From: an uncultured archaeon
GTDB taxonomy: Archaea > Asgardarchaeota > Thorarchaeia > Thorarchaeales > CAZPUN01
DNA length: 17,860 nucleotides
Assembly (NCBI GenBank): GCA_964589775.1
Contig: CAZPUN010000034.1
Span: 1 to 17,860 of the forward strand
Reading direction: 5' to 3'
This document shows, piece after piece, positions 1,747 to 14,003 of this stretch (the stretch's first letter is position 1; each line of letters begins with the position of its first letter). The notes below the pieces were generated by a model. The model ran no database searches. It saw only the letters and a list, made by a program, of their open reading frames with translations, and had not been told where the DNA came from. Made by a program: the position numbers and the translations under genes.

Positions 1747-3762
1747 ATGAAACCATTGGTGCGCGCTATGAATAAAAGAGCAATGCAAGAATGTGCATGT
1801 ATATTAAATGAACGGGATAAATCTTTAGTATTATCGATAATAGACAAATCGAAAACATATGTGGAATTTTTAGAATCTCTCGAAAAAGCGCTTGATAATG
1901 AGCAATTTATAAACTTGGATTCTTATCATATAGTTTCGTTTATGGTTCTGATGGCTGGTCGTAGAAGTTCTCTAATGAAATTGCTTAATAAATTAATTCC
2001 GCGTTATCCATCTTTGAAAATAGAGCTTCTATCCATGGCGTCGTATGTGCAGGAAAAAGACTTAAAATATGAAATGTGGATTGATCAAATCGAGCTTCTT
2101 ATTCGTAGACTGAAGGACAATCCTGTATCCTTAATGGTAGCAAGAGTTTTGAAAATTGTTGGGTCGATTTTGATCTGGCATAAATTTGATAAAATTGAAC
2201 AAGAACACGATATATTTGGAGTTATTGACGATCTAATGAATAAATGCGAATGTTTTTCGATTTTCAAATCAATCTTATACTCATTTTATGCTTTTGCATA
2301 TCATCAATTAGGTTCCACAGATATATCGTTAGAGATGCTGACGCAAGCCGAAAAATTACTGAGAGATTGTATAATTGAAACATCACAAGTTATGAATATG
2401 AAAGGAATTATTTTAGGCGAAATTGGTCGTGCTGAAGAGAGTATAAATGCATGCCAAGTAGCTTATAAAGCAAGGTATGAACTTGGAAATATCGTGGGAG
2501 CCGCTGCGGCATTAAACAACATGGCGATGCAATATTGGAGTATTGGCGATACTGAAAAAGCGTCTGCACAAATCATGAAAGCAATTGAAATGTTTCGGGA
2601 GTACAATTTTCCAACTGTAGTTCCAATGTTAAATCTCGCCCTGATTTATATTGGTGATGGAGATTACGAAAAAGCGTTGACAATTGCGCTTCAAGCAAAA
2701 AGTCAGGCAAAGGCATTTGGAATGAGCTATATTGGTCTTCCAATGGTTTTATCACAGGCATACATTTATCTAAAACGATTTGATGAAGCTGAAAAATATA
2801 TAGCTGAATACAAAAATATGATGGAAAAATCCAGTTCTAAAAGAGATACCTTTGCGTATCATTTCTTGGTTGGGTTGTTGGAAAAAACTCGTTTGAATCT
2901 ATATAATTCTACCAATGAATTTTTGAAGGCTATTGAAATTGCAGAAGATTTTAACATGATTTCAGAGATCATAGAGACAAAGATAAAGTTTGCTGAAACT
3001 ATGCTTCATAAGTATCTTATTGTGAAGGATATGTCATTCATACAAATTGCTGAAGCTCACATTGAGGATGCAAGATTAATCTGTGAGGAGCAAGAACTGG
3101 ACCGCCAACTGTATTATACTGTTAAATTATCTGTTTATATCGAAACCATTCTCGGTAATAAAAAGAAAGCAAAAGATATTGTAAATGAAGCAATTGCAAA
3201 GTTTGACAGTAATCCTCCATTGCAAAAGAAATTGGTTAAATTACGTGAAGAAGTTAAGAAATCAGGTTCGAAGCGTGATGTTGAATCGCTTATTCGCAGC
3301 TTTACGGACAGTGCTCAAAAATTACTTCGAATTCACATATTTAAGAGACCAAAAAAGATATCATTCAAATTATTGGGTTATATCATTATGATGAAACAGA
3401 GCGGTCTTGCAATAATTTCCAAAATATACGACCAAAAAATCTCTACAGATAGTAATCTTGTGGCCGGATTGATTTCCGCAGTAAGTACATTTCTGCAGCA
3501 AATATCTAACAATAAGAATGAGGGAAACTTAAAGTCCATTTTGCACGAGAACATATCCATTCTTATTGAAACTGATGAGCAGTTTAGCTATCTCTTACTT
3601 GTAGATCATGAAACCTATGAGGCGCGAAAGTTACTACGTAAAATTTCACAAACCTTCCGAAAGAATTATCCTGCAAATACTGATTGGGATGGAAATCTCG
3701 GAGTATTCAAGAATGCTGAAAAAGTAATAACGCCAATTGTTCAAAGTTTTATTGAGCAATAA
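1747..3762 (+). CDS. TPR-repeat protein with C-terminal longin-like domain
   Basis: TPR-like repeats (AAALNNMAMQYWSIGDTEKA, MLNLALIYIGDGDYEKAL, LSQAYIYLKRFDEAEKY). The last ~130 aa have a longin pattern (YIIMMKQSGLAIISK...LVAGLISAVSTFLQQI...LKSILHENISILIE...WDGNLGVF) typical of Asgard proteins. Confidence 0.8.
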   Translation: MKPLVRAMNKRAMQECACILNERDKSLVLSIIDKSKTYVEFLESLEKALDNEQFINLDSYHIVSFMVLMAGRRSSLMKLLNKLIPRYPSLKIELLSMASYVQEKDLKYEMWIDQIELLIRRLKDNPVSLMVARVLKIVGSILIWHKFDKIEQEHDIFGVIDDLMNKCECFSIFKSILYSFYAFAYHQLGSTDISLEMLTQAEKLLRDCIIETSQVMNMKGIILGEIGRAEESINACQVAYKARYELGNIVGAAAALNNMAMQYWSIGDTEKASAQIMKAIEMFREYNFPTVVPMLNLALIYIGDGDYEKALTIALQAKSQAKAFGMSYIGLPMVLSQAYIYLKRFDEAEKYIAEYKNMMEKSSSKRDTFAYHFLVGLLEKTRLNLYNSTNEFLKAIEIAEDFNMISEIIETKIKFAETMLHKYLIVKDMSFIQIAEAHIEDARLICEEQELDRQLYYTVKLSVYIETILGNKKKAKDIVNEAIAKFDSNPPLQKKLVKLREEVKKSGSKRDVESLIRSFTDSAQKLLRIHIFKRPKKISFKLLGYIIMMKQSGLAIISKIYDQKISTDSNLVAGLISAVSTFLQQISNNKNEGNLKSILHENISILIETDEQFSYLLLVDHETYEARKLLRKISQTFRKNYPANTDWDGNLGVFKNAEKVITPIVQSFIEQ

Positions 3763-6056: not shown

Positions 6057-6518
6057 TTGGAATATAGAGAACTAATTGCATATATGAATTCTCTACTCGG
6101 ATCTCTTGTATTTGCAAGTGATTATTTAGGTATTGATACACAGCTATTATCAAGAATTACAGGAAATGAAATGAATAACCTATTCAAGGATGTTACCCTA
6201 GCAATTGGTGGCATTGAAAACATAGGTGGTTCATTTTCAGAGGTTATAAATCAATTTGGCGAGCATGTTACGGAACGAAAAATTACTTCAGAATTCAAAG
6301 TAATTTCTGATAGTGATTCTGAAATCACTTTTACAGTAAAAGATTGTATATTTTCAATGACACGCCAAAAGCTTAGAGAATCAAAAATACCGTTTTGTTT
6401 CTTTTTGACTAATTTATCTGGAGTCATAGAAGACAAAACTGGCAAGATATTAACAATAAAATCACAAAGTTATGATCTAGACAGTAATACCTGTACAATA
6501 TGTGCAAAAATTGAGTAG
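6057..6518 (+). CDS. Stand-alone V4R-like (methanogen output domain-like) small-ligand-binding protein
   Basis: TTG start with SD GGAGGT. Pattern ITFTVKDCIF...PFCFFLTNLSGVIE...TCTI gives the three-Cys arrangement of V4R-type domains. TTTATATA box near 6004-6011. Confidence 0.6.
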   Translation: MEYRELIAYMNSLLGSLVFASDYLGIDTQLLSRITGNEMNNLFKDVTLAIGGIENIGGSFSEVINQFGEHVTERKITSEFKVISDSDSEITFTVKDCIFSMTRQKLRESKIPFCFFLTNLSGVIEDKTGKILTIKSQSYDLDSNTCTICAKIE

Positions 6519-6532
6519 GACCGGTGGAAATC

Positions 6533-6655
6533 ATGGCTGAGACCTGTAAAACTTGCAAATATGCAGAAAAGGGTACTGGTTCCATGATATGGTGTAATAA
6601 GAAAGAGGTTTATGTTCCTGCTGAAGGTAAATGTGAATTTTACGAAGCAGCATAA
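6533..6655 (+). CDS. Small four-cysteine metal-binding protein (40 aa; HiPIP-like spacing), absent from the ORF track
   Basis: Hand translation gives MAETCKTCKYAEKGTGSMIWCNKKEVYVPAEGKCEFYEAA*. It has C-x2-C-x12-C-x12-C, SD GGTGG, starts 14 nt after the upstream stop and is followed by a T-tract. Confidence 0.8.
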   Translation: MAETCKTCKYAEKGTGSMIWCNKKEVYVPAEGKCEFYEAA

Positions 6656-6764
6656 ACCTTACTATTAAACTTTTTTATATTATCGAATTAACTAGGAATA
6701 TTTTTTAATCTTTTAATTTTATTATTATTAATTGAGTATTGTGAGTAAAATTGAGGGGAATGAG

Positions 6765-8075
6765 ATGAGTGTTCTTTCCGCAGTAAAAGATATAGCACGC
6801 AATCTGGAATTGGAAATTCCGATTGAGAAATGTCCGCAACGTAGAAAATTAATTGCACAGGTTGAAGATATAAACTATTTTTGCAAACGTGTAAGCACTG
6901 ATCTAGAGTCTGAGGAATATTTGGAGTATGCTCGCGATTTTGAGAGGTTAATTTCTCTAGTTAATGGTATGAAGGACATTGTACTGGAAATTGAAAATAC
7001 TGAATATCGTGATAAGATTGTTGATATTCTATGGAAATTTGCAACAAAAATTAATCGTATAGGTGAACTTATGGATAAACTGTTTGAAGTGAATGGGATT
7101 TCTGAAGATGATCTACACAGTGGAGTGCCATTAAAAATAGAAAAAGATTTAGAGCTGTCTTCTCTTAATATTGATGAAGAGGAGGTCATACCATCCGTTA
7201 AGACCGAAAAGCCCCAGAAGGAAGAGATTAAAGTGCCCGAAAAGGAACGCGAGGAGAAGAGTGTATCCCCCGAGATGCCCTCAATATCTTTACCGACATC
7301 CTCAAAATATGTTGCAAAACCAAAACCATACAAAATTGAGGATGTTGAAAAAGTTGTGCCTAAGAAGATAGTTCCATTAAAGCCTTGGGAATCTGCATCT
7401 GAGCTTGTAAGAATTGTTCCCAAAAATCTTGTACGCTCTTTTGAGTATGCATGTGAACTTGATCAGCTGCGTGAATACTCCAAGGCGATTGAAGAATATG
7501 CAAATATAGGTTCAGAGCTTCGTCACATTTTAAACGAAGAATCTGATGATCGCAAAAAGAAAATTTTACAAGATGCAATTGATGTCATATTGAAGAGGAT
7601 CGATACTCTAAAGGGACTTATGGAAGAACGAAAGACTATTGAAACAGAAGCACGTAAGGTATTTGCTGAGCCAACTACTGTGTCTGCAGAAGATATTGGC
7701 AAGTTCTCAAATATTCCTCAAGAAATTCGATATCTTCGTCTTAACAATCCATGGATCACTGGAGCTGCTGTCATCACGCGGAATGGAATTCTAGTATGGC
7801 AGACGCCCAATTGGGACGTTGCACAAGATGTGTCGCAAATAATCAAAAGCATTCAGTCTGGAATTAATATTCTTATGTTTCGTGATGTGAACTATCGTGT
7901 TAATTACAAGACGCCTGAAGGAATTATTGCTTCTAATGATGCTGGAAAGGGTCATCTAATTCTTGGCGCAAGTCCAGAATTTGGTTGGCTGCTTGTTCAT
8001 GTGATTTCAGATATTGATCCATTTCCAATATTTGGAAAAACCGTTTTAACTGCAAAATCGTTGCATCTCACATAA
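6765..8075 (+). CDS. Multidomain protein: helical N-terminus, charged/Pro linker, MIT-like domain, C-terminal Asgard profilin-like domain
   Basis: MIT pattern FEYACELDQLREYSKAIEEY...LNEESDDRKKKILQDAIDVILKRIDTLK (about 7425-7619). Profilin pattern GAAVITRNGILVWQTPNWDV...FRDVNYRV...IIASNDAGKGHLI (about 7707-8075). ATG 6765 with SD GAGGGG preferred over the track start 6732. Confidence 0.8.
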   Translation: MSVLSAVKDIARNLELEIPIEKCPQRRKLIAQVEDINYFCKRVSTDLESEEYLEYARDFERLISLVNGMKDIVLEIENTEYRDKIVDILWKFATKINRIGELMDKLFEVNGISEDDLHSGVPLKIEKDLELSSLNIDEEEVIPSVKTEKPQKEEIKVPEKEREEKSVSPEMPSISLPTSSKYVAKPKPYKIEDVEKVVPKKIVPLKPWESASELVRIVPKNLVRSFEYACELDQLREYSKAIEEYANIGSELRHILNEESDDRKKKILQDAIDVILKRIDTLKGLMEERKTIETEARKVFAEPTTVSAEDIGKFSNIPQEIRYLRLNNPWITGAAVITRNGILVWQTPNWDVAQDVSQIIKSIQSGINILMFRDVNYRVNYKTPEGIIASNDAGKGHLILGASPEFGWLLVHVISDIDPFPIFGKTVLTAKSLHLT

Positions 8076-10923: not shown

Positions 10924-12063
10924 ATGCCAGCAGCATTGTTATTCATTGCATGGGATAGTAAGATTGGTGCAATCTTACAGGCAAAGGTTCCGGTGGATTT
11001 TGCGGATGCCTATACTGAGGATCTAAATACTGAAATCATGAGAATTTTTACTGCTCATGCGTTAGGCGAAGCTGATGCAGGCTTTTCAAGTCTGACAGTC
11101 AAAATCGGTGGCGAAGAGTATAAAGTTGCTAGTTACTATACTGGAATTGTTCGCGAAGAAGAGCAATACTGTGTAAGCTTACTGTTGCAGGGGTCTGAAG
11201 ATCCAAAGGCCTATGAAGGCGCACTAACTTCAATTGTTCCAGGTCTTGTGAATGCTGTTGCACATATGACTGCAGATGAGTTCCAGCATGAATTGGAATT
11301 ATCATTCCGTAAAATTATAAGACTTGCTGGCATGACAGATGAATCGCGTCTTGCACGACTATTCACTGATGAGGTAGCACGTGCTGTCTGGCCTAAGCTA
11401 TGGCGTGGAGGAATATCGAAAGAAGATATGACTGAATGGCTAAAGATGGTAACGGGGCTCGCGTCGATTTCTATAGATTCTGTAATTGCTCCTTTTGAAG
11501 TTCTTGGTTTAGTAAAAGAGGAATGGGTGGATGAAGTCGGGCGAACCTGTCTCTTTCTAGTTAGTGATATTGATGTGTTAAGAGCGCCCCCATTAACCTC
11601 AATTGAAAATGCAAATACTGTTCTTGATCCTGATGAAGTTGCAGATTATAAGAAGATGACTAAGGAATTCTTAGAAGAATGGCAAAAGACTCCTGAAGAC
11701 ACTATCGCGATCGCTGAAATTTTATCAGATCCCGATACTTATGATATTTTGACCATTTTACGTGAGAGACCACATAGTTTAAGTGAAATTGAGGCAAGAG
11801 TGGATATGCCTGCAAGAGACCTAAAAGCCGCCATTCAGAAAATGCTCAAATACAGAGTTATTACTGAGATTAGAAAGCGAAATATGGGCGGCGAATATGA
11901 AAAGTGGTATCTGCTTTTAACAGATATACGAATTCGAAGGTTCTGGCCAGAATATTTCATTTCATCATTAATTCAAGAACTTGAAAAGAATCCTGAAGAT
12001 AAAAAAGCAATTCAAATGGCAAATCAGCATTTACGACTTTTGCGAGAATCATATCCCAGATAA
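10924..12063 (+). CDS. uDENN/longin-domain protein with two tandem winged-helix repeats (NPRL2-like architecture)
   Basis: N-terminal LLFIAWDSKIGAILQAKVP resembles the uDENN/NPRL2 F-[DH]-x3-G-P...P start. Internal duplication: LARLFTDEVARAVWPKL...LFLVSDIDVLRAPP vs IAEILSDPDTYDILTIL...YLLLTDIRIRRFWP. The second copy is clearly wHTH-like (PHSLSEIEARVDMPARDLKAAIQKMLKYRVI). Confidence 0.65.
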   Translation: MPAALLFIAWDSKIGAILQAKVPVDFADAYTEDLNTEIMRIFTAHALGEADAGFSSLTVKIGGEEYKVASYYTGIVREEEQYCVSLLLQGSEDPKAYEGALTSIVPGLVNAVAHMTADEFQHELELSFRKIIRLAGMTDESRLARLFTDEVARAVWPKLWRGGISKEDMTEWLKMVTGLASISIDSVIAPFEVLGLVKEEWVDEVGRTCLFLVSDIDVLRAPPLTSIENANTVLDPDEVADYKKMTKEFLEEWQKTPEDTIAIAEILSDPDTYDILTILRERPHSLSEIEARVDMPARDLKAAIQKMLKYRVITEIRKRNMGGEYEKWYLLLTDIRIRRFWPEYFISSLIQELEKNPEDKKAIQMANQHLRLLRESYPR

Positions 12064-12186: not shown

Positions 12187-13131
12187 TTGATTCATAATGT
12201 ATACGTTCTAAACAAAAAAACAGGTGAAATACTATTTCACAAGTCATTTTGGTTTACCGAAATTACAGAACGTATGTTAAAAGACGTAATCGACACGATT
12301 GACAAGCTAGAGGAATCTGAAGATAGCATAGAGACTGAATTTGGAATTGATCGTTTAGTCATACATCTACTTAATCCTCGTGATATTGAGATTGCATTTG
12401 CATATGAGACATTTGGAGATTTAGTTTTTCTTGTTTGTGGCGACCCATCGGAAAACGAAAAAGAGCTTCTTAAGAAAGCGACAAAAATTAAGGATCACTG
12501 GATCAAAACATTTGGTTTAGATAGAACTACACCTTTAAATGAAGATGAGCAAAGGGAATTCTTGGTTAAGGTAAATGAGACTGTAGTTAGCCTACTAAAA
12601 ATCGCTTTGATTGGTCCTGGTGGTGTAGGAAAAACATCTATTGTAAAACTTGTTACAACAGGCGAACCAACTTCAGAATATGTTCCCACTATGGCACCAG
12701 ATATGCGTCCTATGGGATCATTGGTTGAACAAATTATGAAAGGCAAAGAAATCAGTGAAAAATATGAATGGATTGTATTAGGCAATAAAATAATTATAGC
12801 ATGGGACCTTCCTGGTCAGGAAATGTTTAGGACGTTTTGGAAAGTGTATCTAAAAGATGCGGACGGCGTTCTATTAGTAATGAAATCAACATTACAAGGA
12901 GTAATAACTGCGAAAAAAATTTTGGATTTGATTAAGGAATATTCTCCAAACACTCCTGTATGGGCTATTGCGAACTTTCAGGACCTTCCCAATGCTTTGA
13001 AACCGGATATGATCGAGCGAATAATTGGAATTCCGACATTTCCAATGGTTGCAATTGATCCTAATAGGCGTACTGAAATGATACGAATTATACGTGCAAT
13101 TGCATTGGAAAAAGAAGCTGCATACCTATGA
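12187..13131 (+). CDS. Longin domain fused to an Arf-related small GTPase
   Basis: TTG start with SD GGTGGG. N-terminal MIHNVYVLNKKTGEILFHKSF is AP sigma/mu-type longin-like. G1 GPGGVGKTS, G2 YVPT, G3 WDLPGQ followed by Arf-like FRTFWKVY, G4 variant NFQD. Confidence 0.85.
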   Translation: MIHNVYVLNKKTGEILFHKSFWFTEITERMLKDVIDTIDKLEESEDSIETEFGIDRLVIHLLNPRDIEIAFAYETFGDLVFLVCGDPSENEKELLKKATKIKDHWIKTFGLDRTTPLNEDEQREFLVKVNETVVSLLKIALIGPGGVGKTSIVKLVTTGEPTSEYVPTMAPDMRPMGSLVEQIMKGKEISEKYEWIVLGNKIIIAWDLPGQEMFRTFWKVYLKDADGVLLVMKSTLQGVITAKKILDLIKEYSPNTPVWAIANFQDLPNALKPDMIERIIGIPTFPMVAIDPNRRTEMIRIIRAIALEKEAAYL

Positions 13132-13308: not shown

Positions 13309-13457
13309 GGCAAATCACTTTATTAAGGAGTTACGCTCTAATAATAAATTGAAAGAAACATTAATATGTACCTCGACTACACTAAGAGATAATATTTTAT
13401 AGGTGCTGCTCCAAATAATCATTATTATTAATGCATTAAATAATTAATGTGGTGGCA

Positions 13458-14003
13458 ATGGCTGACTCACAAAATTACGATTTTATCAGGAAGATACTCC
13501 TCTTGGGAGAAGGCGGAGTTGGAAAAACTTCTATTATTAATAGATATATTCACATGACTTTCTCAGACCAGTACTTTATGACCATTGGGGCTCAGTTTGC
13601 AGTAAGCATAGTGCATGTCAAAAAGTACGATAAGCGAGTAAAACTAAGCATTTGGGATCTTGCAGGAGAGCAGAGGTTCAACTTTGTTCAAGCATCGTAC
13701 TTTAAAGGTCTTAAAGGAAGCTTTGTTGTATTTGATGTCACTAATAAGCGCTCCTTTAAAATGGTACCAAATTGGCTTAATTCAATAAAAGAGAATAGTA
13801 CTGAAGATCCAATTATTTTTCTCGTAGGTAATAAAATAGATCTTGAAGACCGAGTTATCTCAAGAGAGGAAGCCGAAGCCTTCGCGAAAGAGCATAATTT
13901 GGAATATTATGAAACAAGTGCGAAAGAAGGTATTGGAATAAACGAAATTTTTGAAAATATGGCTGCCAAATTAGTTGAAAAATGGATGAATGAATCCATG
14001 TAA
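13458..14003 (+). CDS. Rab-like small GTPase without a C-terminal prenylation motif
   Basis: G1 GEGGVGKTS, G2/RabF1 TIGAQF, RabF2/G3 KLSIWDLAGEQRF, RabF4 SYFKG, RabF5 VVFDVT, G4 GNKID, G5 ETSAK. No cysteine at the C-terminus. ATG 13458 follows SD GGTGG. Confidence 0.93.
   Translation: MADSQNYDFIRKILLLGEGGVGKTSIINRYIHMTFSDQYFMTIGAQFAVSIVHVKKYDKRVKLSIWDLAGEQRFNFVQASYFKGLKGSFVVFDVTNKRSFKMVPNWLNSIKENSTEDPIIFLVGNKIDLEDRVISREEAEAFAKEHNLEYYETSAKEGIGINEIFENMAAKLVEKWMNESM

Follow-up and report, generated by a model that had tools for sequence, protein, structure and literature searches.

A protein joining an MIT domain to a divergent profilin in one Thorarchaeia family, and its candidate role as an adaptor

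Profilins, which share a roadblock-like fold, are usually binders of actin monomers, and MIT domains are modules that usually dock on the ESCRT-III membrane-cutting machinery; spastin and katanin, which act on microtubules, are cytoskeletal effectors joined to an MIT. We know of no MIT-profilin fusion in eukaryotes. Characterised Asgard profilins (Odin 5ZZA; Loki profilin-1/-2, 5YED/5YEE/5ZZB; Thor 7PBH; Heimdall 6YRR; Akil and Robinson 2018; Survery et al. 2021, PMC8410842) are stand-alone proteins of about 125-145 aa that regulate actin (PMC7444086, PMC8410842), and among 256 surveyed the longest N-terminal extension was 25 aa, such extensions modulating the activity of the Heimdall and Thor profilins (PMC8410842). 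Most human MIT domains bind ESCRT-III tails, but those of NRBF2, VPS9D1 and ULK1 do not, and the eukaryotic ESCRT-III cofactors spastin, MITD1 and calpain-7 combine an MIT targeting module with an effector (PMC9477494). In the numbering of the primers of PMC11218997, V13 is the MIM2 hot spot of VPS4A and L64 its MIM1 hot spot. The archaeal protein discussed here follows the same logic of a targeting module plus an effector.

Its gene lies at 6765..8075 (+) of the window, i.e., the whole 17,860-nt stretch of DNA that was analysed, and consists of one uninterrupted ORF of 436 aa (ATG at 6765, TAA at 8073-8075) with a Shine-Dalgarno-like GAGGGG (6753..6758, +) located 6 nt 5' of the ATG and identical in the orthologue locus. 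The earlier note had read the encoded protein (P0001) as an MIT domain followed by a profilin; both domains are borne out, and this two-domain picture left out an N-terminal bundle that is folded (residues 3-117) and, after it, a disordered linker (137-205), so that the order is bundle, linker, MIT and profilin. The AlphaFold2 model of the whole protein (mean pLDDT 70, pTM 0.36) is consistent with independent domains. The N-terminal bundle (residues 1-117; 6765..7115, +) comprises a short helix (3-12) and long helices at 26-48, 52-74 and 79-109, and residues 3-117 are predicted with pLDDT 88 and pTM 0.81. Its fold matches are generic 4-helix bundles, with the calpain-7 MIT at Z 8.1; against MITs, TM values normalised by target reach 0.6-0.7 with E above 1, and hhalign against the protein's own MIT gives a probability of 24%. 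No Pfam MIT match falls in residues 26-109, nothing significant came from a PDB sequence profile search, and the atlas fold search returned generic bundles only; the bundle is possibly a degenerate second MIT. The linker (residues 126-205; 7140..7379, +), rich in Glu, Lys, Pro and Ser and with pLDDT under 50 for 137-205, is the least conserved part of the protein and holds a conserved PSISLP island at about 172-177. A flexible connector (residues 299-313; 7659..7703, +; pLDDT under 50 for 293-312) separates the MIT from the profilin, and a Vps4-type AAA domain after the MIT is absent, the Vps4 of this genome being encoded on another contig.

The MIT domain occupies residues 220-298 (core to 285; 7422..7658, +). 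Pfam PF04212 matches residues 228-283 (nt 7446-7613) with E 7e-6 and 26.5 bits on the whole protein, and with 30.1-30.2 bits on the isolated segment, the family cut-off being 30. This match and the AlphaFold2 helices at 220-234, 238-258 and 262-298, preceded by a short extra helix at 212-217, coincide with the three-helix MIT segment placed by the earlier note at 7425-7619. A four-sequence MIT profile searched against the PDB retrieved MITD1 (E 6e-4) and then the VPS4A/B, Vps4 and katanin MITs, and across 400 Asgard genomes 19 of its 21 outside matches were N-termini of AAA ATPases of about 390-410 aa (Vps4). By fold, the MITs of katanin, NRBF2, MITD1, ULK3 and Vps4 were matched at Z 9-10.8 (katanin 5LB7: Z 10.8, rmsd 1.8 over 78; VPS4A 2JQ9: Z 9.0, rmsd 1.8 over 70); because such values are modest for helical bundles, the sequence profile matches carry the weight of the call. 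Note that no MIT was returned from the PDB when this segment was searched as a single sequence with phmmer, and that an HMM of Thor Vps4 MITs only, which is narrow and contains two wrong rows, missed the fusion. By profile and predicted fold, the middle bundle is homologous to MIT rather than some other kind of bundle. Indeed, it shares with the PF04212 MITs of Vps4/VPS4A/B, MITD1, katanin p60, ULK3 and NRBF2 the three-helix bundle, the A-x-E-L-D...Y...A...Y...E-x-D pattern and hydrophobic residues at the V13 and L64 positions. It differs from these relatives in being internal instead of N-terminal, in the extra helix before it, in its net acidic character with polar residues in the MIM1 groove, and in having no ATPase, protease or PLD partner domain, unlike the known MIT proteins (Vps4, MITD1, katanin p60 and others).

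The C-terminal domain (residues 314-436; 7704..8072, +; an alpha/beta domain at 317-432 in AlphaFold2) is, from sequence and predicted fold, homologous to Asgard profilin, as the earlier note had proposed for about 7707-8075 on the basis of QTxNW, Y and GKGH. These core motifs are intact (QTPNW at 346-350, Y377, N391...GKGH397), phmmer against the PDB returned Asgard profilins only (7PBH, E 1.6e-10; 5YED, 5ZZB, 5ZZA), and within the genome the domain was found by a stand-alone profilin HMM with E 7e-25; Pfam PF00235 gave no match to the protein. Foldseek ranks 1-12 are all profilins, and the two profilin Z values in VIA-align are 17.9 (Odin 5ZZA, rmsd 1.9 A over 118 residues) and 17.0. A roadblock identity was considered and rejected, the best roadblock reaching Z 12.5 versus 17.9 for Odin profilin. 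Of the fold-level outcomes that, according to the earlier note, would count against it (a roadblock or other C-terminal fold, a middle domain that is no MIT bundle), neither was obtained. The fold, QTxNW, the Y before the strand and GxH are common to this domain and the Asgard profilins, at 24-26% identity; in contrast to these stand-alone proteins, it is preceded by 313 aa, and their K58/K71 lysine and last-helix residues are replaced.

A full-length orthologue with 75% identity (P0003) was identified by sequence search, and its locus, with the gene order of the window, is present in two NCBI assemblies and two Logan runs. Since a full-length, 75%-identical orthologue with the same synteny exists in separate assemblies, the fusion reflects neither chance nor misassembly. 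Between the two proteins, identity is 85% in the profilin, 76% in the MIT, 75% in the N-terminal bundle and 59% in the linker, and every domain is under purifying selection, the profilin being the most constrained (dN 0.097, dS 1.5, dN/dS about 0.06, which are rough NG86 values with synonymous sites near saturation). Judged from this comparison, the protein is functional and constrained. Neither the window nor the orthologue loci contain ESCRT or actin genes. Directly 5' of the gene, a 40-aa Cys-rich ORF (CxxCxY...C...C; 6533-6655, +), itself preceded by a 153-aa gene at 6057-6518, is kept at the orthologue locus and was overlooked by gene callers. Elsewhere the window encodes a TPR-longin-like protein (1747-3762), a protein with a C-terminal HTH match and an N-terminus that is longin-like by eye (10924-12063), a longin-like plus Arf/Roc GTPase (12187-13131) and a Rab-like GTPase (13449-14003); these are typical Asgard signalling genes. 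A promoter/terminator scan gave chance-level results with a sigma-70 model, which is unsuited to archaea. No RNA run was among the sequencing runs listed as carrying the gene, and the best-matching DNA run, which may be its source, is labelled hydrothermal vent metagenome.

The same genome encodes two further members of the family. The first (P0024; 417 aa, contig C8, L001:3675-4946, -) is a full-length paralogue with the order bundle-linker-MIT-profilin, including the N-terminal bundle in common, and is 21% identical to P0001 over residues 13-400; P0005 is its orthologue. The second (P0025; 255 aa, C8:24457-25224, i.e., L219:5458-6225, +), with orthologues at 79% and 61%, consists of an MIT-like part (profile E 6e-5 within the genome) and a degenerate profilin (hhalign probability 89%, E 2e-6), without the N-terminal bundle. 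This third member has lost QTxNW altogether, and the family therefore tolerates decay of profilin features. In addition, the genome encodes a canonical stand-alone profilin (C23), Vps4 and one actin, which is 86-90% identical to actins of Thorarchaeota and no more than 78% to those of other Asgard archaea. It has three ESCRT-III genes (L077-L079; C23, C20), compared to two in each of the 12 Thorarchaeaceae genomes checked. It is the sole member of its family among the species compared, in the same order as 86 other genomes, and we read it as a deep Thorarchaeia lineage.

Surveying the architecture across Asgard genomes, as the earlier note had suggested, located it in this one Thorarchaeia family and in none of 399 other Asgard genomes, using profiles of MIT plus profilin, of the N-terminal bundle and of the MIT alone. 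The MIT plus profilin search covered the best 150 of about 740 matches, and the absence rests also on the bundle, MIT-alone and third-member searches, the last of which found no such fusion in 86 genomes. Two protein collections, of 5.8 billion and 1.8 billion entries, yielded no relatives beyond these few, ESM Atlas feature searches gave no usable match, and pattern scans of genome and metagenome contigs added no member except a near-copy of the paralogue. Other combinations were seen: a 738-aa protein with a WD40 propeller, a weak MIT-like segment (E 9e-4) and a long helical region (L071:451-2667, +; C9), a 209-aa MIT plus zinc-ribbon protein without AAA domain from another Asgard family (L240:1456-2082, +; G187), and Asgard profilins of about 220-320 aa in which a low-complexity linker leads to a conserved helical domain at the C-terminus (P0006, P0008 and P0010; L059).

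For the actin face of the fused profilin, we assumed the human profilin register, with the reference lysine taken to lie at the K69 position. Sixteen presumed positions of this face were hand-mapped onto the alignment from the human profilin-1 contact list (PMC1964790), anchored on Odin K58 / Loki K71 (PMC8410842); no residue list for the Asgard profilin-actin interface was found in the literature searched. Scored at these positions, the fused domain falls below all 102 stand-alone Asgard profilins, and its hand-mapped face is more divergent than the remainder of the domain (permutation p 0.003), with p 0.02 for the orthologue, 0.04 and 0.17 for the paralogues and 0.93 for the genome's own stand-alone profilin, in a test that is imperfect in that face positions are surface positions. 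As an example, N376 (Pro in a paralogue) stands at the Odin K58 / Loki K71 / human K69 lysine, changes are seen in strand 4 and in the last helix (R378, N380, I417, F420, P421, G424, K425, L428), and this helix has lost an Asp and an Arg that Asgard profilins typically possess (K425 and L428 here). The central strand (I388, S390, H397, I399) and F423 are kept as in stand-alone profilins. Because 13 of the 16 positions are the same in the orthologue, the surface seems to have been changed rather than abandoned. It is possible that this domain binds actin, although from its sequence we lean slightly against it.

In the tree, very long branches (2.5 and 2.8 changes per site) lead to the fused domains, which group with a non-canonical third Thor profilin family (support 91/89; 98/94 with a mixture model), a grouping that may be a long-branch artefact; they are also the four lowest scorers against the stand-alone profilin HMM. 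The third family (L247-L255), whose description was not found in the literature, is a conserved stand-alone profilin-like family of Thorarchaeaceae that lacks the W of QTxNW and GxH, ends in S-I-F-D/S-x and stands in fixed synteny with three Pfam-less genes, homologues of which are present in the genome studied here too. G333, G401 and I422 of the fused domain are shared with it and the K69-position lysine is missing in both; however, the third family has lost W350, Y377 and G396-H397, all kept in the fusion. No MIT match was found in the roughly 1.3 kb flanks of its loci.

Concerning ESCRT-III docking, F226 and L276 are the equivalents of VPS4A V13 (MIM2, helix 1/3) and L64 (MIM1, helix 2/3), and both are hydrophobic. 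In contrast, the net charge of the MIT is -2 versus a median of about +5 in Thor Vps4 MITs, and its helix 2/3 groove contains G249, R253, D273 and D280, the latter at the position of E68, which we take to face the MIM1 arginine. Thor Vps4 MITs have Arg or Lys there, and the genome's three ESCRT-III tails, in which MIM1-like helices and MIM2-like Pro motifs can be recognised, are acidic, so that the MIM1 groove of the fusion complements them less than that of Vps4 does. Acidic residues at the MIM1 Arg position of the tails and Arg/Lys at the E68 position of Thor Vps4 MITs suggest a charge swap in their own right. The MIT of the C8 paralogue P0024 (net +4, with Lys where E68 would be and a MIM1 groove that is basic like that of Vps4) may, on these residues, be a better MIM1 reader and ESCRT-III binder than that of P0001. 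A complex prediction of the MIT with one ESCRT-III tail (score 0.01, mark 0.32) counts neither for nor against. Overall, we give even chances that the MIT of P0001 binds ESCRT-III.

From the observed anatomy, homologies, conservation and distribution we infer every binding step that follows. The reading we favour, at a little under even chances, is that of a lineage-specific, MIT-docked adaptor carrying a specialised profilin. The MIT would recognise a short motif, helical or extended and most probably provided by an ESCRT-III tail of this genome, and would thereby place the protein on ESCRT-III polymers at the membrane; the fused profilin would be a specialised paralogue, bulk actin-monomer buffering being left to the canonical stand-alone protein, and its remodelled face would bind actin weakly or differently, or another partner. 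Owing to the linker, the N-terminal bundle could make contacts of its own as a third module, and the partners probably differ among the three paralogues. Docking is favoured by the MIT homology seen in sequence and fold (closest Asgard matches: Vps4 MITs), by the ESCRT-III binding of most human MITs (PMC9477494), by the hydrophobic residues kept at both hot spots (PMC11218997) and by a genome with Vps4 and three tailed ESCRT-III subunits instead of two; the strongest constraint falling on a profilin with a very long branch, its face scores, its grouping with a non-canonical family and the retained canonical profilin favour specialisation. Against this adaptor stand the MIT charge, the polar groove facing acidic tails, the MITs that do not bind ESCRT-III (PMC9477494), the lack of ESCRT genes in the window and the orthologue loci, the long branches behind the profilin grouping and the hand mapping of the face from human profilin.

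A rather unlikely alternative is that the protein serves as a scaffold for other proteins and binds neither canonical partner, e.g., in small-GTPase or longin/roadblock signalling. Both predicted binding surfaces drift selectively under strong purifying selection, which would fit such a switch, and poxviral profilin, which lost actin-binding residues, gained other partners and switched to tropomyosin, provides a precedent (PMC1964790). The longin, longin-GTPase and Rab-like genes of a window devoid of ESCRT and actin genes point in the same direction; however, they lie 3-7 kb off, form no operon with the fusion and are common in Asgard genomes. Moreover, neither the hot-spot residues of the MIT nor any part of the profilin core has been lost, and the fold is far nearer to profilin than to roadblock.

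The favoured adaptor includes, as a special and unlikely case, a two-way coupling in which the MIT holds ESCRT-III tails and the profilin holds G-actin, monomers being delivered to or sequestered at ESCRT-III necks. The earlier note had suggested such a link, with actin recruited to or regulated at ESCRT-III sites. The folds of both domains are intact, the unchanged residues of the central strand and F423 match stand-alone profilins, the MIT-profilin order is kept in three paralogues, and the genome supplies the partners needed (actin, Vps4 and the products of three ESCRT-III genes, whose tails are MIM-like); Asgard profilins regulate actin (PMC7444086, PMC8410842). In contrast, Asn (Pro in a paralogue) has replaced the lysine at the K58/K71/K69 position, substitutions affect strand 4 and the last helix, the charge of the MIT suits the acidic tails badly, and QTxNW is absent from the third paralogue. 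The suggested link is partly supported, its domains and partners being present; recruitment of actin fits less well with a canonical profilin kept elsewhere, no ESCRT or actin gene nearby and a distribution in one family only.

Improbable, in turn, is a protein that regulates actin while its MIT and N-terminal bundles bind a non-ESCRT partner or, in autoinhibition, MIM2-like motifs of its own linker. Here conservation is highest in the profilin, the activity of Heimdall and Thor profilins is modulated by N-terminal extensions (PMC8410842), and one MIM2-like hydrophobic-Pro-x-hydrophobic motif precedes the MIT in 4/4 long proteins (background 0.07 per 100 aa); however, this motif was defined post hoc, its positions are non-equivalent between the two families, and the actin face is altered. 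Finally, we dismiss an artefact, be it that an MIT gene and a profilin gene were joined by misassembly or read-through or that the helices resemble an MIT by chance, since the whole-protein Pfam score below the gathering cut-off and the empty single-sequence search are outweighed by unbroken orthologues in independent assemblies, which already refute it, by paralogues with the same domain order, by purifying selection on each domain and by profile searches that return MIT domains nearly exclusively.

The earlier note knew of no characterised example of this architecture, and no MIT-profilin fusion was found in the literature searched. The architecture is new, but assembled from two known domains, and is confined to one Thorarchaeia family. 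Unlike the eukaryotic MIT cofactors, it represents an independent, lineage-restricted archaeal invention; being lineage-specific, it is not ancestral to eukaryotes, and it illustrates independent tinkering with eukaryote-like modules rather than the ancestor of a eukaryotic protein. It also indicates that Asgard profilins, which published work depicts as small and stand-alone, can be built into large proteins and can give rise to specialised paralogues. Asgard actin regulators and ESCRT have been studied separately, and the MIT-profilin family offers a small, soluble and testable candidate for their coupling in protrusions or division. Should the two-way coupling, unlikely as we consider it, be true, this would be the first physical link between ESCRT-III and actin within a single polypeptide in any prokaryote, and the lineage would have expanded the fusion into three paralogues alongside an extra ESCRT-III subunit.
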